From a virus (taxonomy: Duplodnaviria > Caudoviricetes), in the IMG/VR virus record IMGVR_UViG_3300027749_000034: 64,000 nt of DNA; one strand, written 5' to 3'. A model generated the notes under the pieces. The model searched no databases and was not told where the DNA came from. It was given only the letters and a program-made list of their open reading frames with translations. Made by a program: the position numbers and the translations under genes. Below are positions 37,368 to 63,097 of the stretch, in pieces; position 1 is the stretch's first letter, and the number at the start of each line of letters is the position of its first letter.

Positions 37368-37868
37368 TCAATCTATGTCGTTGTTTACCAAGCACATGAC
37401 AATATGTACTCTATCTTCCAAGCTTCCGTTTATTGCAGTATGTTCTTCTTTTGTGTTGACCCAATATATGCGGCCATCTGCTGGAATATGTAAAATTTCA
37501 GGGGGCCGAGTAAAAATAAATTTGGCTTGATTGTGTGTTTTGACAGCAATGTGCAGTCTGGGATTATCGTCTGTGTGTATACTATAACACACCCTGGCAG
37601 GCATAATCATAATTCTGGATCTGAATACAGGAATTGGAAGTGAACTAAAAAAGTCCTGCCACCAGGTGCCTGCAAGATCTGGATGTATCATATTCCATTG
37701 GCCTTCGCCTTCACCGGGCCTTGAACCTGTACTGGCATTCCAATCAGCGGATCCATTTGTTTGTAAAGACAATTGTCTTTGATCTGGATGTGCCGACATC
37801 AGCAGTTGTGTTTCTGCTTTTAGTCTTTCAAAGTCAATTACGCCGGGTATTTTGCTGATCCGTTGCAT
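37368..37868 (-). CDS. Asp/Asn beta-hydroxylase-like Fe(II)/2OG oxygenase
   Basis: RSRIM, YSIHTDD.PRLH, YWVNT...HTAIN....RVHIV. Confidence 0.7.
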   Translation of the reverse strand: MQRISKIPGVIDFERLKAETQLLMSAHPDQRQLSLQTNGSADWNASTGSRPGEGEGQWNMIHPDLAGTWWQDFFSSLPIPVFRSRIMIMPARVCYSIHTDDNPRLHIAVKTHNQAKFIFTRPPEILHIPADGRIYWVNTKEEHTAINGSLEDRVHIVMCLVNNDID

Positions 37869-42839: not shown

Positions 42840-43506
42840 TTTCTGCTAGCCACACTGGATAAATTTGACTGTGATTTTCCAGTTTAAAATTTCCATTGGC
42901 AGGGTAAAATGCAATCCAATCATGCCACATATGATGTGCATACATGATTGGTGCAAGCTCTAAATTTCTCACACTCATGTCAACTATTTTAAACCAGTCT
43001 GGTGCATGCCAATGGCCTGTTGAAAACACCACACCCAGTACATGTTCGAGTGTTGGAACTTCTGGCTCGTAATTTTGCCAATACACAGCTTTGTCAAGAT
43101 GCAATGCCAGTTCGAAACTCAATTGGGCAGATTCTGGATCTCCCACTATCAATAGATAGGTCCAAATGTTATTACCATTTTTTTCTAAGGGTAATCTTTC
43201 CAGTATCTTACCAGGAGGTATTGGCTGTCCGCGATGGTCTACACCTGTGCCCGGCATAAAATTCAGCTTCTTAGATACGGCAACTTTAGCAATTTCAAAA
43301 GTAGTTTGACGTGGACACAATCCAGCCCTGCAAATAATATCACCTGACTCTAATTTTAAAGTTGATAATATTTTTAATTGTTCCCAAGCATCATCTGGCA
43401 AGTCTACAATGTTAATTGGCATCATTGCATCAACAAACTTTGTGTCCATCTTGGTGATATCTGCATGGTTTGTTCGTCCTGGAAGTGTAAGTATATGTAC
43501 GGTCAT
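42805..43506 (-). CDS. Hypothetical protein, possible degenerate GT-A paralog
   Basis: In operon between GT-like genes; no clear DxD. Confidence 0.5.
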   Translation of the reverse strand: MTVHILTLPGRTNHADITKMDTKFVDAMMPINIVDLPDDAWEQLKILSTLKLESGDIICRAGLCPRQTTFEIAKVAVSKKLNFMPGTGVDHRGQPIPPGKILERLPLEKNGNNIWTYLLIVGDPESAQLSFELALHLDKAVYWQNYEPEVPTLEHVLGVVFSTGHWHAPDWFKIVDMSVRNLELAPIMYAHHMWHDWIAFYPANGNFKLENHSQIYPVWLAESEKPLEYWRRG

Positions 43507-44381
43507 GCCAACACTTCCATGATTCTATCGTAGTTGCGGATGATGCTTTTCTTGTTCATTAAATGCAAGTCCTCACCCGTTACTTCAACTACCATATTTT
43601 TCCACTCTTCTGGCAGATTGCTTAACATGATCCAACGGTTTGAATCAACCACTTCAACAATATCATCTCGCTGGTCTTGGTATCTAAGATAATATGGAAT
43701 TTGTCCAATGAAGCCACCATCTGACCAACCATCACACATGTGAGCCGCAATGCTGGCTGAATAGTCTGTGCGATACAATGTGCCTGGGAATTTGTATAGG
43801 AAGCGATAGTATTCCCAATTTTGTTTTACTGCTGACCAAATACTGAAAAAATGTTCTGCTTCTTCACTCTTACGCCAGTACACCACAGTTGACCACCACA
43901 TGCGAATGCCAGCATAATGTAGCCAGCGTTCTGTGGTGTATGGTTCTTCCATTCTTAAATTTCTAGCATCTCTGTACATGGCCACATCATTCTGACCGCC
44001 AAACAGCTTGGCCAAATTGGCATTGCCACATAGGTAATCTGTGTCAATTAAAATTGTTTCATCAAATGGACTTAGATTATAAATGTCGTGTTTGTTGGTG
44101 TTTGTAAACTGTGCGTTGAAGCTGTGATATGCGCCATCGTGATGTAAACGCATGTTTCTTTCGTATTCGGGATTGGTTAATATAATGTCATCAAACGCGG
44201 CGTTCATAATATCAATACCGTGCGTTTGTTTACAATGTTCCATGCTTTGCTGATTGGTAACCAGTACAACTGGATACTCAGGCATGAATTTTTTTACAGC
44301 ATACGCGGCAACAATGGCCAATTGCGTATAATCCAACTGCTCATTGTTGTAAGCAAACATCATGAATCCCTTGGTGCTCAT
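43503..44381 (-). CDS. Nucleotide-diphospho-sugar transferase-like protein (GT-A)
   Basis: GFMMFAYN, K..IYNLSPFDETILIDTDY (DxD), RTDY. Confidence 0.7.
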   Translation of the reverse strand: MSTKGFMMFAYNNEQLDYTQLAIVAAYAVKKFMPEYPVVLVTNQQSMEHCKQTHGIDIMNAAFDDIILTNPEYERNMRLHHDGAYHSFNAQFTNTNKHDIYNLSPFDETILIDTDYLCGNANLAKLFGGQNDVAMYRDARNLRMEEPYTTERWLHYAGIRMWWSTVVYWRKSEEAEHFFSIWSAVKQNWEYYRFLYKFPGTLYRTDYSASIAAHMCDGWSDGGFIGQIPYYLRYQDQRDDIVEVVDSNRWIMLSNLPEEWKNMVVEVTGEDLHLMNKKSIIRNYDRIMEVLA

Positions 44382-44383
44382 GA

Positions 44384-44731
44384 TTATAGCCCTACAATTT
44401 TTGCGGTAGACCTTGCTGACTTCAGCTTTTTCTGTTCAACTTGTTTTGTTTCCATGGCAGAATCATAAGCTTGAATCAAAACATTTAGAAATTCGTTTGC
44501 ATCATCAATTGTTATAACATTACCACTGTGGTCCTCAACAAAAACTTTCTCGTTGCGGGTTGCCTTGACGCTAACAAACGCTATTAGCTCTTGCGTAGAT
44601 TTAAAGATCGCACCTTGATGTGACACTAAAAGTGCCGCTTCAATTTGGGCATTGATGTTTTGCCGTTGTACCTGTAAAGTTAATCGATAATTGGCAAAGG
44701 CCAATGCATCTTCTAATTTTTTATCCATCAA
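44384..44731 (-). CDS. Hypothetical protein (tail-fibre-assembly-like)
   Basis: 115 aa helical protein adjacent to the tail genes. Confidence 0.55.
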   Translation of the reverse strand: MMDKKLEDALAFANYRLTLQVQRQNINAQIEAALLVSHQGAIFKSTQELIAFVSVKATRNEKVFVEDHSGNVITIDDANEFLNVLIQAYDSAMETKQVEQKKLKSARSTAKIVGL

Positions 44732-45441: not shown

Positions 45442-45449
45442 TATTTATA
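45442..45449 (-). promoter_or_regulatory. T4-late-type promoter
   Basis: Exact TATAAATA on the - strand, upstream of the 45397 start. Confidence 0.65.
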
Positions 45450-45474
45450 GATGCGTTAGCAACCGTTTAACCGT

Positions 45475-46584
45475 TTAAAGTTCTTGCCAGTCTTGAGTCA
45501 ACTGACTTACAGGCATTGGTAATTCCAAAGTTACTGAGCGTTCGCTAATAGTACTTGGATGTGTCATAGTAACAGTCATTGCAACTGAACCTCGCACTTC
45601 AATACCAAGGCCGGCATTGTCTAACAACGACCTAATTTCTAATTTTTGTCCGTTAATGGTACCAAACAGTTTCAAACGGCTCGAAGCATAGCCGCCATAA
45701 CCGCCATATCCGCCATAGCCTCCATAGCCTCCATAGCCTCCATATCCGCCATATCCGCCATATCCGCCATAACCTCCACTGCCGCCGTTACAGTCCTCTC
45801 CACCATAACCTCCGTATCCACCATAACCTCCGTATCCACCATAACCTCCGTATCCACCATAACCTCCGTATCCACCATAGCCTCCACCACCACCTCCGGC
45901 AGGGCTGGTATATAGAAGTTTTTCATTAGGTGTTAATTCGCTAAATCCTAGACCTTGACTAATTCCTCGATTGTTCAAACTTGCAGTATCTTCAACATTA
46001 ATCTTAATGGTTCCCATGTCAATGAATATGGTTTTCCATGTATGGTAGCCGCAACCATAACCACCTGTGATACTGTATGCTATGCGAATATCGCCACCAG
46101 CGTTGAAAAAGTGACGAGCACTTTCATATCCGCTAAAGTCCAACTCAACAATGCTGTCTAGTTGATTGGTCCAATTGATATCTTTTGAATATGTTCCAAT
46201 ACTGTTGATTGTAGTGTATTGGGGATCTACAGCATTTCTTAAATTCCTTGCGCCATTTAACAATGACTCAGCTGAATTAAAAAAGTCAGCCGTAACCTTG
46301 TCGCCACGAGCAACAACCACTAGTTCAATGTCACTGCTGTTTGTTCTTAGGGTACTGATGTTGATGCGATCAACAATTTCATTTGTCTTATCTGCAGTAA
46401 TTTTTTCACCGCGTTGAACATTGTCAACATTATTGCCGCCCCAGCCCCAACGGATTGCATCTTGTACCGATGCGTCATCGCTTGGACCTTGATTATCATG
46501 CGTGTCACCGAATAATTCGTTTACAGAATCTGTAAGTGAGTTAAGGTAATCCGCTGTGATTTTATCTTTGCGGCTAACTGACAT
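45475..46584 (-). CDS. Virion structural (tail-associated) protein with an internal Gly-Gly-Tyr repeat insert
   Basis: N-terminal GxKITAxxxNxL repeats typical of phage tail proteins; (GGY)9-GGEDCNGGS-(GGY)10. Confidence 0.7.
   Translation of the reverse strand: MSVSRKDKITADYLNSLTDSVNELFGDTHDNQGPSDDASVQDAIRWGWGGNNVDNVQRGEKITADKTNEIVDRINISTLRTNSSDIELVVVARGDKVTADFFNSAESLLNGARNLRNAVDPQYTTINSIGTYSKDINWTNQLDSIVELDFSGYESARHFFNAGGDIRIAYSITGGYGCGYHTWKTIFIDMGTIKINVEDTASLNNRGISQGLGFSELTPNEKLLYTSPAGGGGGGYGGYGGYGGYGGYGGYGGYGGYGGYGGEDCNGGSGGYGGYGGYGGYGGYGGYGGYGGYGGYGGYASSRLKLFGTINGQKLEIRSLLDNAGLGIEVRGSVAMTVTMTHPSTISERSVTLELPMPVSQLTQDWQEL
45688..45897 (-). repeat. Coding tandem repeat (GGY)n
   Basis: Block 1 contains four exact 18-nt units GGTGGATACGGAGGTTAT; block 2 consists of 9-nt units with synonymous variation. 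Confidence 0.95.
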
Positions 46585-47618
46585 TATCTTACTCCAACTG
46601 TTGCTTCGACTTTACCAATTCCTGCACCATCAAAATTAGCTAGACTACGACCAACTATGCTCCATGCTGGAGAATCAACAGGGGCCGCTTGTGCAACACC
46701 CGGAATATCGCTGGCAGTTAATCTGTCGCCACGATTTACTTTGCCTTTGACTTTTACTGGAATACGACCAGCTACGGCAATGGCCAATGCATTTTTAGCA
46801 TTCTTCTTTTTAGTGTTCATCAAATAGGCAGGACGAGATGAAACAATACCAAACACATTGGTATCACCAATGCTGGTTGTTTGTGTAACTTCTGCTTCAC
46901 CGCCTAGGCTGACCAAAGTGCCAGCTTCATAAGTTGCATCGCCAACATAAATTTCAGCAACGTCAGCAAACTCAGCTTCAACTGCAACACCGCGAATTTT
47001 AAAGTCCTGGCTTGAATTCAAGTTTAATCCACGACCAATTGTTCCTGCATTGTTGTAGTCACCTTCACTAGAATCAGGAGTACCAATTACACCACCACAG
47101 AATGTGGTATAATCGTAACGATCAGTCTGAAGGTTAGCGGCAGCAGGAACAAAATCTGCATCCACACTTAAAATTGCAACCAGCACATTCTTAACCATAA
47201 TCTTCAAACATTTATGGGCTGGTGTATTTGGATTTACATCTTTGATGTCTACTTCAAAAATGCCGTTGCCATCGCTGAATGCTGTGATGTTTATCCAGTC
47301 TGCTGGACGATTCATGTAGTCTGGACCAACATGCAACTGCAACATTGGTGGAACAACTGCGCCTGTTGGCGGTGCAACTGCAAGTGTATCTGCAGGGTTT
47401 AAATTGTAGTATAGCTGTCCTTTGAGTGAATTCAATTCGCTTCGTGGTTTACCTGCAAAATTTTCAATATGGCGGGCAAAGTTTTCAGCAATAATTTCAC
47501 CGTAACCCAGGTAGTTTTTACCAAGTAATACTAGGTCAGTTGATGTAGTGTCGATTTCACCGTCTAGTAGCGTTACCAGTGGTGTTATTTCGTCGCTTTT
47601 AGTTACATTGTATGCCAT
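46584..47618 (-). CDS. Tail fibre/spike-like protein with a C-terminal ADxAE (Peptidase_G2-like) domain
   Basis: N-terminal LVLLGKNYLGYGEIIAENF; C-terminal FADVAEIY...GIVSSRPAYLMN...AGRIPVKV.G...GD.L. Confidence 0.65.
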   Translation of the reverse strand: MAYNVTKSDEITPLVTLLDGEIDTTSTDLVLLGKNYLGYGEIIAENFARHIENFAGKPRSELNSLKGQLYYNLNPADTLAVAPPTGAVVPPMLQLHVGPDYMNRPADWINITAFSDGNGIFEVDIKDVNPNTPAHKCLKIMVKNVLVAILSVDADFVPAAANLQTDRYDYTTFCGGVIGTPDSSEGDYNNAGTIGRGLNLNSSQDFKIRGVAVEAEFADVAEIYVGDATYEAGTLVSLGGEAEVTQTTSIGDTNVFGIVSSRPAYLMNTKKKNAKNALAIAVAGRIPVKVKGKVNRGDRLTASDIPGVAQAAPVDSPAWSIVGRSLANFDGAGIGKVEATVGVR

Positions 47619-47668: not shown

Positions 47669-48295
47669 TTAACCAGCCCTGACTCTGAGGGTGTAAACAA
47701 TTTGAATTGTTTGGTCATCGTTTTTCTGCACCGGGTGAAAGATAAAATGCGTAAGCAGGTTTCCTGAATTTAATCCAGTATTTCCTTTGGTCTTTAAACC
47801 TATTTCATTGAACTCAAACTCACCATCATATATTGTAGTTGCATCCAAGCTTGAACTTGTTGAATCAAAAGTATTGTATGTACTATCTACAGCAAATGGT
47901 TCTTTGTTTGCAATTGTGGCAGTTACAATTGTGTCAGAATAATTTGATCCAACATTGTGCTGAATAACTACTCCGTCGGATGATTCTTCCATTCTATTGA
48001 CATCGCTATCGTCAACTACTCTAAAATAAGTTGGAGTATACAAATTGGCACCTATACCAACAATATTTGGCTTTCTGTAAGTTATTGTGCCATCTGTTGC
48101 AACGATGGCGGCACCACAACCAAAGTGCATTTCGCTAATAAATGATCCGGCGCTTCTTGCCAATGCAAGCGACAGCGCCACGCTCATATTTTCCTGGTGG
48201 ATTGCATTTGAGCCTTCTACCAGAATCTTACCGGTGTTTAAGTCTTTTATCGTAATAAAAGTTTCTATGCTAATTGGTAACTCTTGTATATTCAT
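47669..48295 (-). CDS. Baseplate/tail-associated structural protein
   Basis: NAIH.ENMS.ALA, FNEIGL, LLTHFIFHPVQK, YTLRV. Confidence 0.6.
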   Translation of the reverse strand: MNIQELPISIETFITIKDLNTGKILVEGSNAIHQENMSVALSLALARSAGSFISEMHFGCGAAIVATDGTITYRKPNIVGIGANLYTPTYFRVVDDSDVNRMEESSDGVVIQHNVGSNYSDTIVTATIANKEPFAVDSTYNTFDSTSSSLDATTIYDGEFEFNEIGLKTKGNTGLNSGNLLTHFIFHPVQKNDDQTIQIVYTLRVRAG

Positions 48296-48327: not shown

Positions 48328-51300
48328 TTAATCTTCATCAACTAATACTTGTGTAAGAGTTGTTATTTTTATCAATAATGGACGAAGGTCCTCAGTTGAT
48401 AGTTTTTTGTATGCAATTTCTTCAACTGGTGTACCGTTTCGTCTACGATCAATCTGTCGAATATAGCCAGGCTCAGCGCCAATTATATGATTCTCTGTAA
48501 CAGTAAGTTCGATGTTTTCGTCCAAAGTAACTGGCACTTGTTGCAATGACTTATTGACTGTTCCACGATCTAACAGTTCACTGTGGAACGGTTTAACTTC
48601 AGTGATATATTTCTTAATCAGCGTATCTTTCTTGTCATAGTAAATTGGCACTTGTGTCAAGTCATTTTTACTGGTTGAATCAAAGGTCAAATAGGTAGTT
48701 TTAAATATCCAATCTGCCAATGGGTCCTGGACCAGGGCTTCTTTGGCCATTGCAAAGAACACCAGATTAAAGTAACCAACGGCGTCGCCAACAAAGATAT
48801 TTTCTCTAAGAGCTTTTAGTATTATTGCAAAAACATCAGTAAAGCCTTCATCCCATGGATAGCCAGCCCACTCCTTGACATCCCAGCCGCTGGTGCGCCA
48901 AATTGGATAGAATTGAATAGTACCATTTTTCTTGTATAACAGAGTAAACTGGTCAGTGGCCAGGTTGTCAACTCTATAAACAGATTGGACATTGTTATCT
49001 CCATCAACCAAGGCAAACTTTGTTGGATTTGTATAGTTGAGTAATTCAGTAAACGAACGAATTCTAATTTCTTCGTTGCCCGGAGAATAATCATCTACTT
49101 TGTAATCTACATAGTACCAGTATTGTGTTACATCCAGTGCTTTTGATCCAAGCAATGGTTGCCAAATTCGCAGATATTTGTCCCATTCAAATTTGTCGAC
49201 AGTATTTACTTGTGCCAATTTGTCATTGATAGTATCAACAAAAGTTCTACGAGCATCTTGTAAATTCTTGTACCAGCTTTGTGGCAAAGGACTGTATGCA
49301 TTACCATATCTTCTCAACGGATGTAAATTGATATCTGGAACTTGTCTAGACTTGACGATAACTGCATAATACTTGTTGTCTTCCAGCACATTTTTTACCA
49401 ATGCAGTTTGAAATCTTGCAAGATTATCAACTATGCTATCAAATGATGTTGCATTGCTGATACCTGCAGTCACTCGGAACACTCCAAAAGATTCAGTTCC
49501 ATCATCCTGCCAAACAAATTGCACTTGTTCTCTGTCGGCGTTGATTGTTGGTAACACTGGAATGTCATGCCCACCATACACATTGGTATATGTAAAATCT
49601 GTACCATTGAGATCTACTGTTGTGATTAGTTCTCCAACTGCATAGCTCTGTCCAACAACAAATTGTCTTACATCATGTAGCATTCTGTAATTGTCGTAAC
49701 CTACCAAACTGTCTCGCAATCTAGTAACTGGATAATCTGGAATCACACTACCTGACATTCCTTCTGTTAAAAGTATACCGGTGTTGTGTTTTTGTTCTGG
49801 TTTCTTGTTCTGTTCAATTCTTAAAATTACTTTTTCTCGGCCGCTAAAGAATTTACCAATGTTTGCAATCATGATACTGGCTGAAGTTGCGCCAGTTGCA
49901 TCATATGTTACTTGCATTGGACTCATCCACGCAATGCCATTGGCATCTGGATCATTTAAAATAAATTCCATCGACGCAGAGGTATATGGACGAGCCATAT
50001 TTGTTGGTAGCTTGCTGACACCTCGTTGCCAGTAGTAATATGTTGTAATTGTACCACCGTTTGGTTGTGTTTCTTCAATTACAGAATATCGTAATTGTTC
50101 TACACCACTGCTATCATCTAATCGCAGGCCAGGAGTATCTATTGTTGGTTCTTCTACTGCGCTGACCCATTCGTAAACTGCTACTTCACTGTCGGCAAAC
50201 TGCTTGCCCCAATTGCTTGCACGATAGCTCAATGAGCCTTGTTCATATTCGATGTATCGAACTCTACTGGTATCCCACCAAGTTTTCCCAACATTGCTTT
50301 TACTCCAGGCCATGGTAACAAATTTATTCAATGTTCCAAGCTCATCAACATTATATGTTGCTGGATCAACTGGTTGACGATAGTTGATGTATTGCGCCAT
50401 CTCATTGATACTGGCACCTTTGAACGGATCGTATACTTCTAATGTACCAAGTACATTTTCAGTTTTTTCGTCTAGTATCTGTACCTTATGTATTGCGTAT
50501 GGATCAGTCATACGGGCTTCGCTTTCAATTACCAAGTCATCGTTCGCTGTTGCGCCATACACAATTACAGTGAACTTGTTGTTGTATGGCACAGAGTCCT
50601 GACCAGTATTGTCAATGTATGCTCGCATGCCCTTTAGCCAGGCTTGAGTCGCTTTACTTTGATTGTACTCGGCTATGGTTTCAAATTTAACTGGAGCCAG
50701 TTTGAATGCCACAGTATTATAAACAATTTGATCTGAACTACTTCTTGCTGGAATTAAGATATTGTAATCGTCAACAACTTTTAGTACCTTATGAACTTTG
50801 TCATAGTTGCCGTCATTGTTTCCAACCATTACAATGTAGTCTTGTGCTCGTAATCCATGTGGGTCAGCAAAAGTGACCTTGCTTTCATTTGCTGAAGTAT
50901 CCAATGCATTTGGACAAGTTTCTTCAACATACATTGGACTAAATGTTTGTAGAATATTCCAACCATACCCAGTTGTTTTTAATTTCCAATATGACGAAAC
51001 AGACGCAGTAATTTCGGCTCCTGTACCTGCTGAGCTCGTGACTGTCAGCGTTGGAATCTGATCAAATACATCACTGGAGTTTGAAAGCAGAACGCTGTTA
51101 ATTGCGCCGCCTGCAACTGAGGCAACCGTTGCGACTGCAGGCACCAATGCAGTGGATCTGGTTGAATCGGTGATTGTGATGATTGAATTTGTAGTATAGC
51201 CAGCACCACCGTCTAATACATTGATTTTATCAATGACTCCAATTCGGTTGACCGTTGAAGTAACTGGTTCTAAAAAGCCCACAGTTACTCCTGATGAATC

Positions 51301-54300
51301 TGCATCTGTCCAATACGGATCAACAATTGTCACTGTTGATGCTGGGTTATAGGAACTGCCACCTGTGATCACTGTTACGCTGGTCAGCTTTCCATTTACA
51401 ATATTTGGAGTATATGTAAAACCAGAACCAGTGCGACTGTTGATGATAACTTTAATGTCAGAAGGCACCAAAATGTTGCTACCCTGGCCGCTTGGAAGTA
51501 TGTTAACTGCTGTTATGGCGCCGTTGACAATTGTTGCAGTTGCCCTGGATGGGTTTCGTCTTGTCACAGATATTGTTGTACCTTGTGTATATCCTTGGCC
51601 TGGTGTTGTAACTGTGAAGCCAGTGATTACACCATCCTGTGATCGTGCAAGTGATGGAACTGTCACATCTTGCACTGCTGTAACAGTTACTGATCCACCA
51701 GTACCGGTTCCTGTTTTATTGACAAGGTTATAACTTCTGGTCGCATATGATTGGCCACCCAATGCTCCAGTGGCATCGTTTGGAATTATTACTAATTCTT
51801 TAATGCTGTTTGCACTTGCTAAACTGCTTATTGGCGATTTGCTGTAATTGTACAAGTCAACATTGTCTGAGATGCTTTCTATAGCTGTTAATAGTGTGTC
51901 AACAAGTGCTACCACTGCTGTTCTTAATGTTGCTTTTTGTGCTGAAGTTAGTGCTCCGCCAAAGATTGCATTACTGGCTATTAATGTAACAGCATTGTCA
52001 ATTTCCGTATCTAAGTCTGCTTGACTTACAAGTTCAGGCACTACACTGACACCAACTTTTACATTTGCATTGGCCAGTGTGCCTCGAATATATCTATTGG
52101 TACCAATGTCGAATGAGCTACCTGTGACATTTTTTAATTCGCCGTCGGCACCAAAATCAGGACCTGCAAGATATGTATTATTGTTTCCAATATATGCAAT
52201 TACTTTACTATTTGTCTGATCAATAGTCTCAGATATAAATGGTTGTATGTCTGTGTTTGTTAAAGTTAAACCTGGCACCAACTGTTTCATTGCTGTGTAG
52301 AATGATGCGGCACCCGATAAAATCTTAGCTTTTTCAACTGCTGAGATTTTAAAATTATCTGGGTCAATTCCGTTGACCCAAGCAACCAGCGGAGTTGCCT
52401 GAGAAAACAGTACAAGATTGCCTGATGTATAATTTACAGCAAACGGTGTTGCCGTCAGCGCATTAATTTCTGTTACTCTAAATATTGCGTCAGTTGCAGA
52501 TTGTGAAGTTGTATCTTTTTGTGCAACTAGTAAATCTCCTACAGCATAACCTGTTCCAGCATTCAAATAACCAAAGGTCTTGATTACATTGTATCTTGTA
52601 AATGTACCACTTGAAATGTTATCTTCAATGATTGGAACTATCTGAGCACCAGTGCCAGTACCATTCACTGTTACAATTGTATTATCTAAGGTGTAGTTAT
52701 TGCCAAATCCAATGATACCAGTTGGCATATTAGCTGTTCCAATTCTACCAGTGATGGTTTGTTGAATTGTATCATTCTTATATGTTGCACTTAATAGTGC
52801 TGTTCCACTACCACCAGCCACTGCAATCACTGTGGTTTCTGGATTGTACCCACCTACAGTATCCGTCACATTGACAGTTTTAATTGTTCCATTGACAACT
52901 GCGCTGACATTGCCAACTGTGGTTGATCCAGATTTGACTAGGTCACCAACTTGATAATTTAAACCTTTTTGTGTTATTTTTAATTCAGCTATTCGATTAT
53001 TAACAAATGTACTGCCACTGGTGTGCGGCTTGATACAAACATTGTAAAACCCATTTACATCAACAATGTCGCCAACATTGTACAATGTCGAGGCCGTCCA
53101 ACTGCCTTTGTATTTGGTATTAATGTTAAAGCCATAGTCGCTTACCCAAACATTTGGCAACAGTCTGCCGTCAATTGTTTGCAGGTTCCACTGAGTAGAA
53201 TCAAATACACTGGTCGATGAGCCAGTTATCTTGGCCTTGGCTCTGTACAATTTTCCTTCCTGCCAGCATAGGTCGCTGGGTTGATAGTTGTTGTAGATGC
53301 TAAATCCGTTGGTTGAAAAAATATCTGCTGTAGTTAGTAAATTTGCTGGATCAACTGTGGCATTGGCCAATACTGGGTTATCAGTCTGATCAACATTGAT
53401 AAAATTGGCCATTGTTAAATTGCCCAACTCACGCATTTCAATGTCAGTGTTGAACAATTGTGGATTGCCGGCATTAGGTAACCAATTCTTGGTGTCGTCT
53501 AGACCAGTTTGAGTACTGCGATCAATGGTGGCAAATTCATATGGACGAAGTGGTTTTGTTACCCAACGCTTGTCCTTTTCCCAGATGTCAATGATGTTGT
53601 CACTTAAACTGTCGTACAGGTAAGTAGGCCGCGCTCCATTATTTGTGTTGATAACTGCACCGTATCCGCGAGGTTGAAAACGAATCACTTGCTTGCTTGC
53701 AGTAAAATCTTGGCGACGCAATTCAACTTCCCATATATTTTCACTTTCTAAGTTGCCAAAGTTGCCAGTGGTAATTAGCCACTGCTCGTTTAATTCAATG
53801 TCTTGCTGTCTGCCTGGAATATCAATCTTAGAATTTCTCAGTAGTGCATCCACTGCCAAGTTTGTACCCATGGCAGTTTGTAGGCCTTGCTTGTAAAAAT
53901 GCTGAGTACTTTTATCTTGTATCAGCTGATCAATGATTGTTGATTTGGCAGGAACAACATCTGACTTTGCAATGTCAGTTTTTACTGAATCAAATGCATT
54001 TTGCTCTGGTTTGTGGCTGTCTACAATATCACTGACTATTGCATCAAACCCAGGAATTAGTCCTGCGGGTGTAAGTATTACTCCTCGAGCAGTTGGGCGG
54101 CCAGTCCAACCATTTGTTCGTCTAGCTGATAATCCAAGTACATCAATTCTATTTCCAGTCTGCAGATCAATTATCAAATCTCCAAACTTAGTTTTACGGT
54201 TGATGTATACGATATGATCGTAGTCTCTAGTAGAGAAGTTGACAAATACAATTTGTTGTCCGCCAGTTGGTACAATCTTATCTATATTGGGTTCATACTC

Positions 54301-57300
54301 TCTTGTGATTTGTAATTCATTTGACAGCGCAGAACGCCCGGTTGAAAACAATACCTTACCAGTTCGACCCAAGTCTGCATCTAACCTGTCCAAGGTTCCT
54401 CGAGCATGACTGAATTTTAATCCGTCATCTGTTGCTACGCCAACCAAACAAAAGTGATCAGTTCCCCAGTTTTCTGCAATCCATGTTAGCGCATCAAGTC
54501 CAGCTTGTTGCCAATTTGTTATGGTACCGCGACTGTTGACTTGATTTAAGATCAGTCCCTGTGACTCTTGGTATTTTTGTAGGCCTTCAAAGAAAGTAAA
54601 CAGTCCTTGTTTGTCATTGATATAAGATCCATACTGCAACTCGTGTGAGATATTATCCCAGTCTGAGTAGCTGACAAAAGTTCCGTTTGGAGTTACTATT
54701 TGGCTACGAGATGTTGGATAGCTTTCTGTTAAACTTTGAGCTGACGGATTAAAAATTGTAAAATACTTGTGGCCAGGATCAAAACCATACACTCTAAATC
54801 CGTCGCCATCTTTTTCAACTCGTACTGCACTATATCTCAATTTAGAAGTGCTGACTCCGGGACTCAATGTCATTAAGAAATCTTCGGCAGGAATATAGAA
54901 TCCATTTTTAAATTTTGCGTAATACATCTTGAGAGAGATTACGCCATCACTAAAGCCGCCAACTCCAAATTGTAGTCGACTGTCTAATGACATCAGCTCG
55001 TTCAAAGGTGCTTGGCCAGTTAAATTAAATTCTCTATAAGCTTCAAATAATACTGAACCTATACCAATTGTTGGACGATCTTGAAAGAACTGTCCGGGTG
55101 GCAATGTATTAGTTCCTTTTTGCTTTGGACTGTTTGTATCTGTGTCATTGACAAAAGGATTGATTGCTTCATCTAAGAAGTTGTGAACAATGTCATAATC
55201 TTCTATGGCATGTAAAACATTGTCCCATGTGCCAGCAATGCTTCGACGCCAGGCCATTTCTACAGGTGACCATGATCCAATCCCCCACGGTTGCTGAGCA
55301 ACATCAGAGCTGGGCGAATACATGTCTGGATTCCAGTTTGATGGATCAATTAGCTGTCCATTCAGTCCCACTGGGAATGAACCAAACTTTCTACAGTAAA
55401 CTGGATTTACAGTGACAGGTGTTCCTGGCTCGGAAACAATACCATATATCAATGCATGTTCTAGTGCTTGTCGTTTTGCCGGTGCGTCCACACTCAGCCA
55501 AGAGTAGTAATTATCCCACCAGACTGGTGCAGAATCATATCCTAGTGCTTCCCACGGAGCTGTATCTAGTTGATAAGTGTCAAATGCATTTATATAGATT
55601 GCTCTCCAGCTTAGACCATTGTAGTTCCATGTCCATGCATCTTCTGCATCAAAGTCTGATCGCTCCTGATAATCAATGTTGTTTGTGGTGTACCATTCAA
55701 TTTGTGCTTTGGCCTGTGCTTCTAAAATTGGCAAGCTACGATATGCCCTGTACTGTCGCTGTTGATTTACTGCGCCCACCAGGTGTATGCAGTTGTTGTA
55801 TGTTCTAGTTTCTAACTCTAAGATTACTAAATTACGAAGGTCGTCTTCATCTGTGCCGTACATGGCAATTCTACTGCCGTCGTGACGCTGAATATACTTG
55901 CGTGTATTTTGTCCCCATGTTTCTGTGACAAATCCAGGCTGGTATACACCACTTAGCCCAAGCTTGGCTGGACTGGCTGGAATTCCACTGTATACACCGG
56001 ACTGACTTGAATGATAAATTTCAATTTGAGTTCCATCTGCTGGTGCGGTTTTAAATGTAACCAAAGAAGAATTGGCGTCTACCACATAATCATTCTTAGA
56101 TACCAGTTCGCCGTCAGCGTAAACATACACAATATCTGGACCAAAAAAGTCCAAGTATACAACTCCGTTACCGCCAGTGTTGATATTAAATGTCAATGTA
56201 CCATTGTTAACAACAAAACTGGCTTTATTCATACCATTGGTTGAAACAGCCATGCCAGAAATTGCATCTGGTGAACTATAGGTAAGACCCAGCAATGATT
56301 CTTCTAATATGCGGTCAAGATTTTCTCGTGGAGTGCGTAAATTAAAGTCTAACAAATTAAAATTAGATTCCAATTTGGAAATAAATTTCCTCCACCAGCG
56401 CCAGCCACTTAGTGATCTTGCAATTACGCTGTCTTGTATAGTAGGCGACAAGCGGAAGCTGGTCCATGCACTTCGCATGCTACTGTTATCTGCCATTATT
56501 GCACCGTCAGCGTCAAATACATAGTCTACTGAATTCCAACTTTGACTGTCTGATCGTTTGTTGGCATTAATGCTGGATGTCATGTTATGCACCACCCGGC
56601 TTGGAGTAAATTCTCCTAGGTTAATATTTTGTTCAGGATTGAATACCAGTCCTGGAATTGCAGTGATATGGTCATTGTCAGCATGGTCGCCTTGATGTTG
56701 AATTTCAAGTTCGCCTTGTCCGTCAGCTTGTAACTGTACCGACATGATGGCATTTGATGAATCTCGCACCACTGTAAAACTGTAGTCCACTGGCAAGCCA
56801 TTTAATTTTACTTTTACATTTCTAGGATCTTGTTTTACATCAATGACTTTTGCTTGTATTGATTTACCGTCAATGGTGATGGTTAACTTTGATGGTGCAT
56901 CAGCTGGAACTACAAATGTAAAATAATTATCAACAATATTAACATCAAAGCTGGTCATATCAACGCCGCTGATTGTTGCCACGCTTGGATTACCATCTAC
57001 AAAGACTGTGAAGTTGGCAGATTCGCCGACGGCAATCCTTGGCAAGTTTTTGGCAACAATACTAAAGTTGTCTAGATAAACTGCTCGTAAATTGTTGTTT
57101 ACAACTTTGATACCCCAGTCATATTTTGGCCACATTGTGGCATCCAATTCAACAGTTGAATTGTCAAAGTCAGTGATTGTTCTAATTGCCCAACTCTTTA
57201 AACGGAACCATGCTCTGCTGTAACCAATGCTGAGTTGATTGACCAACGGATTGTTATCAGTGACCCGTCTAAATTGATATGGTCCACTGACTGTTTTAGA

Positions 57301-59436
57301 GCCAATGCCTTGATTGTAGTATGCAAAATTTTGCAATGTATGATTATATACAATATCATACATTGCATCTGATGCAGTATTGTCAGTTGTTAGCTCACTG
57401 AATTGTGAAGGTAAAAATTTCAAGTTATACCCAGATTCTGAATCGTATTTGTCACCGGTGACAATTTCAATAATTGCAGAATTTTTAATATCTGGATTAT
57501 TTGGATTGTTGCTTAATTTAACATTTGTTGAATCATACAGTTCAAACAATGGTTGCTGTGTACGAGAAAGTCTGGTTTGTGCTGGAATTGCTTGGCCGTT
57601 TGCCCAATGGTATTCTAGTAGATAATTTGTGTCAGAATCGTATGGAGTATCAATTAATACCACATCTCTGTTCTGTGCTGATTCAGGAACAAAACCATTT
57701 GTAGCAGTTGCATTTGACAAAACATTTATAATTTTGTTTTTATAACTGTCATTGACCAACCATAACATTCTGAGTTTATCAACCGGTACTCCAGAAATGC
57801 GATATGTAATACTCCATGCCGCTGGTTGGTTCTTTAACCAAATAATTTTTCCGTTAGCAACTTCATAAAGAACTTTTTTACTTACTGTGTTCAATAATTC
57901 ATCAAACTCTTGTACTGTAAAACTAGATCGGTTGAGTGCAGTTTGTATGTTGGTATTTTGTGATATTACTCGTACAATGATATCAGGCTCTAGTTGTAAC
58001 TTACGAGTCGTTGCTATATATTTTAAATTCAAAGTCTCTGTATTTTGATCTACCATCGGCAAATCAACAAAATCAGATACAGCAACACCATCTATTGATG
58101 TAACTAAATTTGGCCATGCTCTAAAAAAGATTCCATGGTTAAATAATTCCAAGGTGTTATCAAATTCAACAATTGGTCGTAGTGCTTGTGCAGGTAACGC
58201 CGTTGTGTTTGAACCAGCAGATGTAACAATATCATTGAACTTGATATCAAGGTAGTCGGCTGTGGTTTGTATAGTATCTTTATGGTACCATACATTAACT
58301 CTGCTATTTGTATTTCGAGTCCGTGCTCCAACTTTTTCTAAGATATAATGCTTTTCATTGATACCTTTAATTGCACCATCCCACTCGACGCTGTCCCAAG
58401 GTACAGCAGTTTTGTCCCAAAGGGTTTGAATTGCCTTGCTATATCTGGTATTGGTATATTGGTGAGTGCGTGACAATAAACGGATGCCGCCAGCAGTTCC
58501 TACGCCGGCAATTTGCCATCGTCGACTGGCCTTGTTTGAATCTTCATCAGTTGTTAAAAAATATTCAACACAGTTTAAGTTCACTGGTAAATCTGCGTTT
58601 GGAACAGTTCCATTCCAATGTATGGTGTTTCCAATTACATCATAATCAACTTTAAAAGTTTTAACTGTGGTGCCTACTGTAACAATAATTTTACTTTTAT
58701 CATATGCAACAAAATCACAATCTATATCAAGACTTGATCTACCATTTGTCGCAGTATCAATTACAAAATTGGACAGTATTGGAACAGTACCACTGCTTGC
58801 TGGTTTATGAAAGGTTGCGTCAGCTGATGGAATGTCGTGGAATACCACACGCATTCCATTTTTCAATTCTAGTCGTTTGCCGTTTCTTTGCATGACTGTG
58901 ATATACTCTGGCTTTCCTAGCAGGTCATTTTGGATGTCAAAGGTTTCTGTTTCGCCGCCAGTGATAAAGATCACAGGCATTCCTTCCTGTATCCAATAAT
59001 AATCTGACCAATTAATAAATTTGTCTGGGTCAATTGGTAGGTCTAGTATGCTAACTGGAACTGTTGTTTCTTTGGTTCTGTTGTTTAGTCCCCAGCCGTG
59101 CGCTATTTCATCTGCGCTCAATGTCGCAGGAGAGTTATCTGCACGATAAACAAGAAGGCCAGGCTCAAGTTGTCTTTTTGCAGTTGGATGTGGCAAGTAG
59201 TCGTTGATCAACGACTTTGTTGTGCGTCTGCCAACTGAGTAGTTCAAGTCTTCCATGGCATGCGGCTGGAACATGTCTTCCATAACTGCCGCAATTAATT
59301 TCTTATTGGTATCTGTCCTAAATATACTCGGAAGTAATTCTGGTACCGCAGGCGATACTACTTCATCCAAGCGTTCACCTGGATAGGTCTTAACAGATGT
59401 ATTAACTGGATTAATTTTTGTTGGGTCTTGCGCCAT
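48328..59436 (-). CDS. Giant (3702 aa) baseplate/tail structural protein
   Basis: Uninterrupted ORF directly downstream of the gp6-like gene; repeated GGxGY beta units and CBM-like segments. Confidence 0.8.
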   Translation of the reverse strand: MAQDPTKINPVNTSVKTYPGERLDEVVSPAVPELLPSIFRTDTNKKLIAAVMEDMFQPHAMEDLNYSVGRRTTKSLINDYLPHPTAKRQLEPGLLVYRADNSPATLSADEIAHGWGLNNRTKETTVPVSILDLPIDPDKFINWSDYYWIQEGMPVIFITGGETETFDIQNDLLGKPEYITVMQRNGKRLELKNGMRVVFHDIPSADATFHKPASSGTVPILSNFVIDTATNGRSSLDIDCDFVAYDKSKIIVTVGTTVKTFKVDYDVIGNTIHWNGTVPNADLPVNLNCVEYFLTTDEDSNKASRRWQIAGVGTAGGIRLLSRTHQYTNTRYSKAIQTLWDKTAVPWDSVEWDGAIKGINEKHYILEKVGARTRNTNSRVNVWYHKDTIQTTADYLDIKFNDIVTSAGSNTTALPAQALRPIVEFDNTLELFNHGIFFRAWPNLVTSIDGVAVSDFVDLPMVDQNTETLNLKYIATTRKLQLEPDIIVRVISQNTNIQTALNRSSFTVQEFDELLNTVSKKVLYEVANGKIIWLKNQPAAWSITYRISGVPVDKLRMLWLVNDSYKNKIINVLSNATATNGFVPESAQNRDVVLIDTPYDSDTNYLLEYHWANGQAIPAQTRLSRTQQPLFELYDSTNVKLSNNPNNPDIKNSAIIEIVTGDKYDSESGYNLKFLPSQFSELTTDNTASDAMYDIVYNHTLQNFAYYNQGIGSKTVSGPYQFRRVTDNNPLVNQLSIGYSRAWFRLKSWAIRTITDFDNSTVELDATMWPKYDWGIKVVNNNLRAVYLDNFSIVAKNLPRIAVGESANFTVFVDGNPSVATISGVDMTSFDVNIVDNYFTFVVPADAPSKLTITIDGKSIQAKVIDVKQDPRNVKVKLNGLPVDYSFTVVRDSSNAIMSVQLQADGQGELEIQHQGDHADNDHITAIPGLVFNPEQNINLGEFTPSRVVHNMTSSINANKRSDSQSWNSVDYVFDADGAIMADNSSMRSAWTSFRLSPTIQDSVIARSLSGWRWWRKFISKLESNFNLLDFNLRTPRENLDRILEESLLGLTYSSPDAISGMAVSTNGMNKASFVVNNGTLTFNINTGGNGVVYLDFFGPDIVYVYADGELVSKNDYVVDANSSLVTFKTAPADGTQIEIYHSSQSGVYSGIPASPAKLGLSGVYQPGFVTETWGQNTRKYIQRHDGSRIAMYGTDEDDLRNLVILELETRTYNNCIHLVGAVNQQRQYRAYRSLPILEAQAKAQIEWYTTNNIDYQERSDFDAEDAWTWNYNGLSWRAIYINAFDTYQLDTAPWEALGYDSAPVWWDNYYSWLSVDAPAKRQALEHALIYGIVSEPGTPVTVNPVYCRKFGSFPVGLNGQLIDPSNWNPDMYSPSSDVAQQPWGIGSWSPVEMAWRRSIAGTWDNVLHAIEDYDIVHNFLDEAINPFVNDTDTNSPKQKGTNTLPPGQFFQDRPTIGIGSVLFEAYREFNLTGQAPLNELMSLDSRLQFGVGGFSDGVISLKMYYAKFKNGFYIPAEDFLMTLSPGVSTSKLRYSAVRVEKDGDGFRVYGFDPGHKYFTIFNPSAQSLTESYPTSRSQIVTPNGTFVSYSDWDNISHELQYGSYINDKQGLFTFFEGLQKYQESQGLILNQVNSRGTITNWQQAGLDALTWIAENWGTDHFCLVGVATDDGLKFSHARGTLDRLDADLGRTGKVLFSTGRSALSNELQITREYEPNIDKIVPTGGQQIVFVNFSTRDYDHIVYINRKTKFGDLIIDLQTGNRIDVLGLSARRTNGWTGRPTARGVILTPAGLIPGFDAIVSDIVDSHKPEQNAFDSVKTDIAKSDVVPAKSTIIDQLIQDKSTQHFYKQGLQTAMGTNLAVDALLRNSKIDIPGRQQDIELNEQWLITTGNFGNLESENIWEVELRRQDFTASKQVIRFQPRGYGAVINTNNGARPTYLYDSLSDNIIDIWEKDKRWVTKPLRPYEFATIDRSTQTGLDDTKNWLPNAGNPQLFNTDIEMRELGNLTMANFINVDQTDNPVLANATVDPANLLTTADIFSTNGFSIYNNYQPSDLCWQEGKLYRAKAKITGSSTSVFDSTQWNLQTIDGRLLPNVWVSDYGFNINTKYKGSWTASTLYNVGDIVDVNGFYNVCIKPHTSGSTFVNNRIAELKITQKGLNYQVGDLVKSGSTTVGNVSAVVNGTIKTVNVTDTVGGYNPETTVIAVAGGSGTALLSATYKNDTIQQTITGRIGTANMPTGIIGFGNNYTLDNTIVTVNGTGTGAQIVPIIEDNISSGTFTRYNVIKTFGYLNAGTGYAVGDLLVAQKDTTSQSATDAIFRVTEINALTATPFAVNYTSGNLVLFSQATPLVAWVNGIDPDNFKISAVEKAKILSGAASFYTAMKQLVPGLTLTNTDIQPFISETIDQTNSKVIAYIGNNNTYLAGPDFGADGELKNVTGSSFDIGTNRYIRGTLANANVKVGVSVVPELVSQADLDTEIDNAVTLIASNAIFGGALTSAQKATLRTAVVALVDTLLTAIESISDNVDLYNYSKSPISSLASANSIKELVIIPNDATGALGGQSYATRSYNLVNKTGTGTGGSVTVTAVQDVTVPSLARSQDGVITGFTVTTPGQGYTQGTTISVTRRNPSRATATIVNGAITAVNILPSGQGSNILVPSDIKVIINSRTGSGFTYTPNIVNGKLTSVTVITGGSSYNPASTVTIVDPYWTDADSSGVTVGFLEPVTSTVNRIGVIDKINVLDGGAGYTTNSIITITDSTRSTALVPAVATVASVAGGAINSVLLSNSSDVFDQIPTLTVTSSAGTGAEITASVSSYWKLKTTGYGWNILQTFSPMYVEETCPNALDTSANESKVTFADPHGLRAQDYIVMVGNNDGNYDKVHKVLKVVDDYNILIPARSSSDQIVYNTVAFKLAPVKFETIAEYNQSKATQAWLKGMRAYIDNTGQDSVPYNNKFTVIVYGATANDDLVIESEARMTDPYAIHKVQILDEKTENVLGTLEVYDPFKGASINEMAQYINYRQPVDPATYNVDELGTLNKFVTMAWSKSNVGKTWWDTSRVRYIEYEQGSLSYRASNWGKQFADSEVAVYEWVSAVEEPTIDTPGLRLDDSSGVEQLRYSVIEETQPNGGTITTYYYWQRGVSKLPTNMARPYTSASMEFILNDPDANGIAWMSPMQVTYDATGATSASIMIANIGKFFSGREKVILRIEQNKKPEQKHNTGILLTEGMSGSVIPDYPVTRLRDSLVGYDNYRMLHDVRQFVVGQSYAVGELITTVDLNGTDFTYTNVYGGHDIPVLPTINADREQVQFVWQDDGTESFGVFRVTAGISNATSFDSIVDNLARFQTALVKNVLEDNKYYAVIVKSRQVPDINLHPLRRYGNAYSPLPQSWYKNLQDARRTFVDTINDKLAQVNTVDKFEWDKYLRIWQPLLGSKALDVTQYWYYVDYKVDDYSPGNEEIRIRSFTELLNYTNPTKFALVDGDNNVQSVYRVDNLATDQFTLLYKKNGTIQFYPIWRTSGWDVKEWAGYPWDEGFTDVFAIILKALRENIFVGDAVGYFNLVFFAMAKEALVQDPLADWIFKTTYLTFDSTSKNDLTQVPIYYDKKDTLIKKYITEVKPFHSELLDRGTVNKSLQQVPVTLDENIELTVTENHIIGAEPGYIRQIDRRRNGTPVEEIAYKKLSTEDLRPLLIKITTLTQVLVDED

Positions 59437-59438
59437 TT

Positions 59439-62400: not shown

Positions 62401-62660
62401 AAAGTTTCTCTTAAATTTAAATCACTTCTGAAAGCTAAATTTTGTCCAATGTATGACATCAAGTCAATCAGTGCAACATACTCGCTGGAGTTAATAAAGT
62501 CTGTAAAATCTTCTGGATAGTTTGTTTGTATGTGATTTAACAATGCGGTACGAAGACTTTCAAAGTCGTAGGCTTTAAAATCTGCATTGACCAAATACCT
62601 ATAGTTGTTCAGCCAACTCTCTGCGGCATTTAGTTGTCCAAGGCGTCGAGTCTGGCTCAT
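59439..62660 (-). CDS. Baseplate wedge protein (T4 gp6-like)
   Basis: DFESLR..L...Y PEDF.DF, LIDLMSY, FLETA, IARQLGY, KFGDG, QDRMIT..DY. Confidence 0.85.
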   Translation of the reverse strand: MSQTRRLGQLNAAESWLNNYRYLVNADFKAYDFESLRTALLNHIQTNYPEDFTDFINSSEYVALIDLMSYIGQNLAFRSDLNLRETFLETAENRGNILSIARQLGYKPFRNFNAGGFLRISAIKTSQDLYDSKGTNLANSTVVWADPLNPDFNEQTSIILNEAFNKATPIGRPVSSAITNGISRELYQISQSQNRTMVEAFNLNARNSTNYNCEIVPMVIDATTQLALESTPNPYGYMTMLFNNDGTGYANSTNGWFLLFKQGTLSYEDHVLETSIQNRVIDVDATGINESDVWVQSVDGSGRIIDSWTKVPSTVGKNIAFNAINKDTRKIYEVITKENDTISIKFGDGTFADIPTGNIRIWYRQSAMEEISFVPSDVLGMQAALRYIDSEGKEQDLVCTLQLSEPITNSLSETITQIKNRAARTAASQDRMITASDYNIYPEGQIGGVDKILSINRTFAGQSIYADTQDPTATYRPVITLASDGFIYSSENTVETTLQDSATDDEVLSWVQESLLNRSTHQLYYKKYLYDDASGLLRIGSDSPLVWHKIDYANGVTHGYFYDVADADKKPVRVGKGTAILENRTLKKNSLIKFSSDRWAKILDIYREGFGVSDNEGNNTGLRANGQGAVFVDGTIADGQLFGWIPSMRSLFNITELAEIVEKIKAKQNFGLYYDNIKDRWFVVSADTVNDTTGQGLDLTTAGTATFRGNSSWMIRLVHNPLTAVWASVLRRDQTAFGSDSELSFHNQRFGSALDQTTRRVIKDSVKFLNVNVGLTDELELDVVDYFRLDDGRYDPKRVQVLLPGLLDTLVPNDPTIIDSIINTGTNNTSDHIVNLVKKEFIDAKGQYTLKPTVSVTVPGDLNGVKGRQDLKVQYNHVPLRDNRVDPTTTNIIDMFVLTTDFNQAFRFWVNNGAASGLRPMPLSSYSLEQLMQPIVPYKSISDSIVFHPVDYKVIFGVGSDPRYQVTIRITKSDGTKVSDAEIRSRVIASVNSYFNFSNWDFGETFYFTDMASWIHKQLGGVISSIVLVPLQSNLTPNDLFQIKCEQNEIFISSATVNNIEIISSQVSPTGIM

Positions 62661-63037: not shown

Positions 63038-63042
63038 AAGCC

Positions 63043-63050
63043 TATTTACC
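63043..63050 (-). promoter_or_regulatory. T4-late-type promoter
   Basis: GGTAAATA then 5 nt then ATG 63037 on the - strand. Confidence 0.55.
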
Positions 63051-63097
63051 AATATGTAATATACTGGGTTTTATCAACCTGTTGACGCTTTTTTAGC

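Follow-up and report, generated by a model that had tools for sequence, protein, structure and literature searches.

A slippage-expanded glycine/tyrosine loop with a mid-point cysteine in a predicted tail-module protein of aquatic phages

The stretch of DNA analyzed here (referred to below as the window) comprises 64,000 nucleotides of the IMG/VR virus record IMGVR_UViG_3300027749_000034 (Duplodnaviria; Caudoviricetes), and encodes on its minus strand a 369-aa tail-module protein, P0001, which carries a 70-residue tract of glycine-glycine-tyrosine (GGY) repeats. In the predicted fold, the tract lies at a turn between two strands of a β-sandwich, and this turn is a hot spot for low-complexity growth across the protein family. 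The GGY units are retained while their codons turn over, and the long loops of the family carry a single cysteine close to their mid-point. The reading that we favor, with a little more than even confidence, is that the tract is a Gly/Tyr hairpin loop expanded by replication slippage and kept by selection, serving as a host-contact element on a tail-module protein.

Repeat structure of the tract

The gene and the parts of the tract are as follows.

45475..46584, minus strand: gene of the 369-aa tail-module protein P0001, carrying the tract (open reading frame list and translation)
45688..45897, minus strand: Gly/Tyr tract GGGG-(GGY)9-GGEDCNGGS-(GGY)10 (codon table, Tandem Repeats Finder, and low AlphaFold2 confidence, below 50, for aa 232-298)
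45805..45885, minus strand: block 1, (GGY)9, aa 234-260 (codon table)
45778..45804, minus strand: linker GGEDCNGGS, nine residues, aa 261-269, in register with three GGY units
45688..45777, minus strand: block 2, (GGY)10, aa 270-299, with runs of three identical 9-nt units

The tract occupies aa 230-299 of P0001, preceded by the residues PA and followed by ASSR, and its architecture and position (nt 45688-45897) are exactly those given by an earlier reading of the window made from the sequence alone (the sequence-only reading). Its 70 residues comprise 46 Gly, 19 Tyr and 1 Cys, and the sole cysteine, Cys265 (codon 45790-45792), is found at a relative loop position of 0.51. Tandem Repeats Finder detects period 9 (21.4 copies) and period 18 (11.1 copies, score 209) in the tract, making a chance origin of the repeat a non-issue. 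Block 1 contains the exact 18-nt units that had been claimed for it, with four copies of GGTGGATACGGAGGTTAT in codons 237-260 (nt 45805-45876). Block 2 had been described as diversified, which holds for its last three units, all single variants, but not for the remainder, which consists of local runs of identical 9-nt units, GGCGGATAT x3 followed by GGAGGCTAT x3. Because of the exact units in block 1 and the identical local runs in block 2, both blocks are seen to have undergone recent local homogenization or slippage. The linkers are probably decayed repeat units, since the residues that occur in them (E, D, C, N, S and A) are each one mutational step from GGN/TAY codons and the linker is in the register of the units. 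Such decay accounts for the residue alphabet of the linkers, but not for the recurrent mid-point Cys described below.

A family-wide loop on an unnamed β-sandwich

Outside the tract, P0001 consists of the following regions.

46225..46584, minus strand: N-terminal helical region, aa 1-120 (AlphaFold2 helices 11-24, 64-81 and 99-114)
45898..46215, minus strand: first part of the β-sandwich, aa 124-229 (AlphaFold2 strands 124-226; motifs HFFNAGGDIR and LLYTSP)
45478..45687, minus strand: second part of the β-sandwich, aa 300-369, beginning ASSRLKLFG (AlphaFold2 strands 302-368, pLDDT 74-95)

The AlphaFold2 model of P0001 has a predicted local distance difference test score (pLDDT) of 74 and a predicted template modeling score (pTM) of 0.70. 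In this model aa 232-298 have a pLDDT of 29-39, and are flanked by strands 222-226 and 302-311. The translation shows that each of the three N-terminal helices opens with a D/E-K-I/V-T-A-D...N motif (aa 8-17, 60-75 and 95-109). The family was delineated by an exhaustive HMMER search with residues 1-229 at a cut-off of E≤1e-3, by which 325 cluster representatives match P0001. In the family alignment (A1), the first part of the sandwich contains invariant columns and the second part is conserved too, and P0001 itself possesses the family motifs RWGWGG, HFFNAGGDIR, LLYTSP and SSRLK together with the common predicted fold. Three fold clusters of the ESM Atlas match P0001 (TM 0.69-0.77), all of them 100% viral and unnamed, and matches in BFVD have E values of 1e-48 to 6e-15. 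Pfam and PHROG scans of P0001 gave no family at E≤0.01, GenBank phages (50,697 phage records) had no match to the region by megablast or to the protein by tblastn, and Foldseek against the PDB gave nothing at E≤0.001. Structural alignment of residues 124-369 with VIA-align returned generic jelly-roll/galectin-type sandwiches only (Z up to 7.5), with phage fiber and tailspike domains among these; such generic matches indicate no function, and a fold without a name does not mean a new fold. Fusions to FN3, Ig-like or giant fiber-like proteins occur in part of the family, and the sole match from a PHROG scan of ten distant members was an Ig-like 'major tail protein' domain belonging to one such fusion. 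The P0001 family is a large, purely viral and so far unnamed β-sandwich family that is very widespread in aquatic phages.

All members of the close subfamily (≥47% identity) carry a G/Y tract at the same turn, ranging from 12 to 77 aa, either as single (GGY)4-14 blocks without Cys or as two-block forms with a Cys-containing linker. A lineage at ~25-30% identity has (GY)n tracts, and other lineages have S/Y-rich (SY)n tracts. In most of the distant relatives, the same two strands are joined by a short turn of 4-10 residues, typically GxGxYAENxY, and the long loop must therefore exit and re-enter the fold at one point. Relatives in which the remainder of the protein is preserved thus have loops of anywhere between 4 and 77 residues, and across the family this turn is a hot spot at which low-complexity G/Y (or S/Y) sequence expands. 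The sequence-only reading had termed the tract an insert. The tract exists as described, but, with a G/Y tract at this position in every close-subfamily member, it is a family-wide loop that has grown: the Gly/Tyr-rich turn joining two β-sandwich strands in its most expanded form, and not a foreign insert.

A mid-point cysteine and two near-equal arms

The complete loops of at least 50 residues (6/6) all contain exactly one Cys, at a relative position of 0.46-0.56, and this Cys is found in at least three types of linker (EDCNGG/ADCGGA, YNCSPGG, and a bare Cys in YCGY). The mid-loop Cys plan is repeated in the (GY)n lineage, with GNCYDG and GNCGG linkers. The arms of two-block loops measure 36/35, 38/38, 33/36 and 38/30 residues. 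The single mid-point Cys in all six long loops, together with the near-equal arms, suggests a symmetric two-armed hairpin with an apical Asp/Asn-Cys. Two stricter rules were considered and discarded: that loops longer than 45 aa need a Cys linker, which is ruled out by a 48-aa single block without Cys in L102, and that arms are strictly equal, which is ruled out by P0014 (19/37) and P0005 (7/25). Among family genes located upstream of the glycosyltransferase gene discussed below, those in L099, L101, L108 and L109 encode (GGY)n with a bare Cys in place of one Gly, or (GY)n with NC-containing linkers, and that in L101 has two Cys in a single loop.

Retention of the peptide

Between the window and the related IMG/VR assembly L002, 31 of the 61 codons in the repeat blocks differ, every one of them synonymously (0 non-synonymous). 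The zero is inflated by concerted evolution, since each block has recently been re-expanded from one or two founder units and 61 greatly overstates the number of independent comparisons. In the flanks, 299 codons contain 66 synonymous and 16 non-synonymous changes. Codon choice within units also differs from lineage to lineage. The synonymous-only differences in the repeat and the lineage-specific codon choice support the conservation of the peptide rather than the DNA, with GGY retained while codons turn over, and the selection on the peptide that the sequence-only reading had proposed is borne out by this comparison.

Location of the gene in a tail module

The genes upstream of P0001 are as follows.

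46584..47618, minus strand: 344-aa protein with a tail-fiber-like C-terminal domain (PHROG phrog_6427, phrog_22593 and phrog_19602, 'tail fiber protein'), syntenic in nearly all loci
47669..48295, minus strand: 208-aa protein, phrog_11259 (function unknown), syntenic
48328..59436, minus strand: giant 3702-aa protein, in the upstream baseplate run
59439..62660, minus strand: gp6-like wedge protein, 1073 aa, in the upstream baseplate run
62657..63052, minus strand: gp25-like protein (Pfam GPW_gp25)

The P0001 gene is the last of a co-directional run with overlapping stop and start codons, comprising gp25, gp6, the giant protein, and the 208-aa and 344-aa proteins, and its own ATG overlaps the stop codon of the upstream 344-aa gene. 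The baseplate genes (48328..63052) match PHROG phrog_10646 (E 2e-239), and the best tblastn matches of the gp6-like protein are the jumbo phages Atu_ph07, Phosso, SCTP-2 and 121Q (29-35% identity). The tail association suggested earlier is upheld by this position at the close of a gp25-gp6-giant-protein baseplate/fiber operon.

A distant homolog of P0001, ORF355, is present in the cultured Ralstonia jumbo phage RsoM2USA (MG752970; hhalign probability 75%, E 2e-5), and its N-terminal 90 residues resemble annotated tail-fiber proteins of PA5oct-type phages. The neighboring ORF356, ORF359 and ORF361 of RsoM2USA were detected in virions by mass spectrometry (PMC8504454). A role of P0001 in the virion or fiber module is a reasonable inference from this gene context. 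The 208-aa neighbor of P0001 was considered as a homolog of RsoM2USA ORF356, and this was ruled out (hhalign probability 0.1%). A similarity is visible by eye between the N-terminal part of the 344-aa protein (GYGEIIAENFARHIENFA…GQLYYN) and the N-terminal segment of RsoM2USA ORF355 that matches the PA5oct-type tail fibers (L090:10391-11560). If this resemblance is true, RsoM2USA would have the fiber-adaptor and sandwich modules fused in a single gene, and the window would have them in two separate genes.

Proposed role of the loop

In the reading that we favor, an in-frame coding microsatellite with 9/18-nt units would have been expanded by replication slippage at the LLYTSP/SSRLKLFG strand turn, yielding a 70-residue Gly/Tyr excursion that would leave and rejoin the sandwich at the same point, with two arms of ~35 residues around an apical Asp-Cys-Asn turn. 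P0001 would be located on the virion, at or near the fibers, of an uncultured aquatic jumbo myovirus, and the Tyr-rich hairpin would jut outward, allowing low-specificity, multivalent contact with the host envelope or its polysaccharides, while in-frame gain and loss of units could provide rapid length variation. This would resemble minimalist antibodies, in which loops rich in Tyr, Gly and Ser suffice for binding. The sequence-only reading had described the tract as a flexible adhesive whisker; a flexible, exposed loop agrees with the low pLDDT (<50) of aa 232-298 between modeled strands, and we regard the adhesive whisker as plausible. If the loop does contact the host, phages of abundant uncultured aquatic bacteria would possess in it a simple binding element whose length can vary rapidly.

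Several points weigh against this reading. Virion location, exposure and the binding role are inferred, binding purely so, and RsoM2USA ORF355 is not among the ten bands identified by mass spectrometry (PMC8504454). The fold search gave generic β-sandwich matches only (Z up to 7.5), and low pLDDT in a low-complexity tract is no proof of disorder. The number of independent codon comparisons is reduced by concerted evolution as stated above, and the copy numbers derive from short-read assemblies that are prone to break in the GGY repeat.

The favored reading is compatible both with an ordered tract and with tyrosine glycosylation, the latter being discussed with the downstream enzymes. That the tract is ordered appears unlikely on balance. 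Its arms would then pair as polyglycine/polyproline II (PPII) or as a two-stranded ribbon hairpin with the tyrosines on one face, and in an oligomer the hairpins would bundle into a thin, Cys-capped spike of up to ~10 nm, a length that we estimate from ~35 residues per arm and the ~3.1 Å rise per residue of a PPII helix. The three residues per turn of the PPII helix fit the tripeptide period, and both the near-equal arms (36/35, 38/38, 33/36 and 38/30) and the recurrence of the mid-point Cys across independent lineages would be expected of such a spike; however, AlphaFold2 gives no structure for the tract (pLDDT 29-39), some Cys loops are asymmetric (19/37 in P0014 and 7/25 in P0005), single-block loops reach 48 aa without a turn element, and the mid-point position might instead reflect a similar maximum stable length of each pure block. 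A disulfide-stabilized PPII bundle has been proposed for the high glycine-tyrosine keratin-associated proteins (PMC8409303), which lends the ordered arrangement some further support.

A nearly neutral origin, in which slippage simply lengthened a permissive surface turn and the result is tolerated without having any function of its own, is rather improbable. The range of loop lengths (4-77 residues) among relatives whose remaining protein is kept would be consistent with neutrality, as would the local homogenization of the blocks, but the G/Y composition holds down to ~47% identity, (GY)n arose anew in another lineage, and no block has drifted from Gly/Tyr. The linker, in register and with residues one step from GGN/TAY, is consistent with simple unit decay, whereas a recurrent single mid-point Cys is not expected of neutral decay.

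Downstream enzymes and the question of a tyrosine acceptor

The P0001 gene is followed by a run of enzyme genes, with the following features.

44384..44731, minus strand: 115-aa helical protein (p115), in distant relatives always located between the family gene and the glycosyltransferase family 8 (GT8) gene
43503..44381, minus strand: predicted 292-aa GT8/glycogenin-like retaining glycosyltransferase (GT), invariably linked to the family gene
40870-41841, 39994-40866 and 39039-40007, minus strand: three paralogous GT-A-type transferases (Pfam and mutual matches)
37368..37868, minus strand: 166-aa Fe/2-oxoglutarate (2OG) β-hydroxylase, Cpz10-like (PDB 7V4F, E 4e-26, residues 11-158)

Between the P0001 gene and the enzyme run is a 77-nt gap (45398-45474, minus strand) containing TATAAATA (45442..45449, minus strand), the T4-type late-promoter consensus. 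This motif occurs 2 times in the window versus 4.2 expected by chance, so only its position favors a late promoter. The TATAAATA motif is flanked by an imperfect inverted repeat, AACGCA...TGCGTT, and the same gap contains a tandem AAACGGTT x2 overlapping the P0001 stop codon.

The 292-aa protein is predicted to be a GT8-type retaining transferase. It has a GT-A fold (AlphaFold2 pLDDT 93.6) with a DxD motif in which D113 and D115 are invariant, and Foldseek matches it to glycogenin, GlyE, UGGT and galactinol synthase (E 3e-8 to 1e-5). A profile of 22 homologs compared with the PDB recovered glycogenins only, and weakly (E 0.04-0.7; best 0.036), and there was no Pfam match at E≤0.01, so the gathering score of Glyco_transf_8 is not reached. 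The GT-A paralogs are connected by a weak Pfam Glycos_transf_2 match of one of them and by cross-matches among the paralogs in the loci. The hydroxylase is related to Cpz10 of the caprazamycin pathway, a β-hydroxylase acting on a small nucleoside-peptide intermediate (PMC9814697), and points to small-molecule chemistry in this part of the cluster. The second 'oxygenase' of the cluster is a membrane fatty-acid desaturase, and neither of the two is the type of enzyme expected to hydroxylate a tyrosine ring.

In every metagenome locus whose flanks are long enough, the family gene, p115 and GT8 occur as a syntenic triad, usually with one GT-A behind it; in the window the triad spans 43503-46584, and the loci compared are L006-L170. 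When loci were retrieved from the GT8 side, the triad was syntenic in 74 of 80 IMG/VR loci; upstream DNA is lacking in five of the remaining six, and in the last, L162, a divergent family member was recognized by eye. The linkage holds down to ~25% identity and in cultured RsoM2USA (L090, 216629-223553), where the genes ORF355-ORF347, all annotated as hypothetical, encode in order the family homolog without a G/Y loop, a small helical protein, a GT8-like protein, two GT-A proteins and a p396-like protein. The gene order of the window triad and GT-As is thus shared with RsoM2USA, but ORF355 differs from P0001 in having no G/Y loop and a fiber-type N-terminal segment in place of the three-helix N-terminus. 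Also in RsoM2USA, ORF358 (L090:7855-8832), located upstream of the triad among structural genes, has an N-terminal GxxGxxG Rossmann motif and looks like an NDP-sugar epimerase/dehydratase. A G/Y stretch of ≥12 aa is absent from 52 of the 74 IMG/VR relatives retrieved from the GT8 side; as these relatives and RsoM2USA ORF355 show, the linkage of the GT genes to the family gene is independent of the G/Y tract. By contrast, the hydroxylase, PP-loop, GNAT-like and desaturase genes are limited to the close clade, and are missing within 10 kb in the (GY)n lineage (L020-L023).

These distributions bear on a further proposal of the sequence-only reading, namely that the downstream enzymes have their most obvious substrate in the tract; for the repeat itself, this finds no support. 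In its full form, the tract tyrosines would be dedicated acceptors, O-glycosylated by the GT8 and GT-A enzymes and hydroxylated by the oxygenases, so that repeat and cluster would constitute one virion-decoration system, which we consider improbable. The family gene and the GT8-like gene always occur together with only the small helical protein between them, and the TATAAATA motif lies ahead of the enzyme run, but the GT8/GT-A genes accompany the family equally with or without the tract (52/74), and enzymes of this kind do occur in relatives lacking the tract, including RsoM2USA with its loop-less homolog, a situation that the sequence-only reading had itself named as counting against its proposal. 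The nearest solved relatives of the GT8 protein include the glycogenins, which glucosylate a tyrosine, and the protein-directed GT8/GT24 enzymes GlyE and UGGT, but these matches are weak (sequence E 0.04-0.7; TM 0.4-0.5) and uninformative on the acceptor. Action of the oxygenases on the tract tyrosines is disfavored both by the restriction of the oxygenase, PP-loop and GNAT genes to one clade, with their absence within 10 kb in the lineage in which (GY)n arose independently, and by the enzyme types involved, a Cpz10-like small-molecule β-carbon hydroxylase, which does not carry out aromatic-ring chemistry, and a membrane fatty-acid desaturase.

Precedent for virion glycosylation by GTs encoded beside structural genes comes from mycobacteriophages (Freeman et al. 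2023, PMC10527164, as cited in PMC12619734), where, according to that citation, glycans were found experimentally on the C-termini of capsid and tail-tube subunits. The gene neighborhood is alike in the present case, while the GTs here are of GT8 and unnamed GT-A type and their presence is independent of the G/Y tract.

A narrower variant, in which the family protein is the acceptor of GT8 through tyrosine O-glycosylation and the (GGY)n or (GY)n repeats multiply the sites on a two-armed, Cys-capped hairpin, has a slim chance of being correct. If true, it would imply a phage-encoded, tyrosine-glycosylated tail whisker, combining virion decoration with a protein-primed glycan, of which we know of no description in any virus. 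The GT8/GT-A genes would more plausibly be partners of the protein family or of the whole virion module than of the repeat. The triad represents a concrete candidate for a virion-glycosylation unit outside mycobacteriophages, in aquatic jumbo phages, and this is perhaps the weightier general result.

Independent assemblies and copy number

The tract recurs in the independent IMG/VR assemblies L001 and L002 (94% identity, 10+11 Tyr, linker EDCNGG) and in L003 (78-85% identity, 8+10 Tyr, linker ADCGGA), such that at least four independent assemblies contain it in frame inside the conserved open reading frame (ORF). Some short-read contigs are interrupted inside the GGY repeat: L004 stops there at its contig end and L005 at its contig start, L011 frameshifts (10001-10690), and L001 has ambiguous bases within the repeat (6074-6334). 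Such breaks, frameshifts and ambiguities could reflect either assembly fragility or population heterogeneity of repeat length. Because of them, the exact copy number in any single assembly, the window included, is soft, while the tract itself is real.

We give almost no credence to the tract being an assembly artefact or acting at the nucleic-acid level, for example as a VIPR-type GGY/NN guide-RNA-like array, since, despite the broken or frameshifted short-read contigs and a preprint that describes alternating GGY/NN motifs in viral RNAs (10.64898/2026.04.26.720920), the tract is in frame within a conserved ORF in at least four independent assemblies, its period is 9/18 nt and not 5, and third codon positions differ while the peptide is unchanged. 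A VIPR vrRNA array in particular was ruled out, with a period of 9/18 nt inside a conserved ORF versus five-nucleotide GGY/NN in non-coding RNA.

Relation to known Gly-rich proteins

The closest known kind of element is found in the gp38 adhesins (T2/T6/S16-type) with their polyglycine-II sandwich (Dunne et al. 2018 in PMC8409303; PMC12032242), which like P0001 have a Gly-dominated, slippage-prone coding repeat in a tail-fiber-module protein, with Gly-rich segments framing the presumed host-facing parts. The two are distinguished by the lack of sequence or profile similarity for P0001 (Pfam and PHROG at E≤0.01; tblastn against 50,697 phage records) and by their motif plans: in gp38, hypervariable segments alternate with numerous short motifs of pure Gly in a compact domain, whereas P0001 has two long (GGY)n arms with 19 Tyr, one Cys and a nine-residue linker, as an excursion from a β-sandwich. 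On homology and motif plan, P0001 does not qualify as a gp38-type adhesin.

For an ordered spike, analogs would be the Gly-rich PPII sandwich of gp38 and the snow-flea antifreeze protein. PPII bundles have been reviewed (PMC8409303), and those of high Gly-Tyr keratin-associated proteins and springtail antifreeze proteins resemble the tract in G/Y(+Cys) composition or in the tripeptide period of Gly, with models or structures of antiparallel PPII helices, turns and disulfides (PMC8409303). These proteins are eukaryotic and unrelated, with 6-13 short helices versus two 35-residue arms, and the likeness is one of composition and periodicity alone.

Gly/Tyr low complexity with weak multivalent aromatic contacts also characterizes the FUS-type (G/S)Y(G/S) domains, GGY/GGX silks and suckerins. 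The P0001 tract differs from these in being anchored in a folded viral domain as a closed loop, and in following a defined two-arm plan.

Four groups of core glycosyltransferases are listed in a 2025 paper on an aquatic jumbo lineage, the 'moraphages' (PMC12619734). The literature searches turned up no precedent for Gly-Tyr repeats in phage proteins, nor a report of Gly-Tyr tripeptide arrays in phage tail proteins. Low-complexity, Gly-rich, slippage-prone elements are already known in one class of phage adhesin (gp38); new, as far as the literature was searched, is a Tyr-studded tripeptide array with a conserved two-arm, mid-point-Cys plan on an unnamed aquatic phage family, and the mid-point Cys regularity is the point added here to the sequence-only reading.

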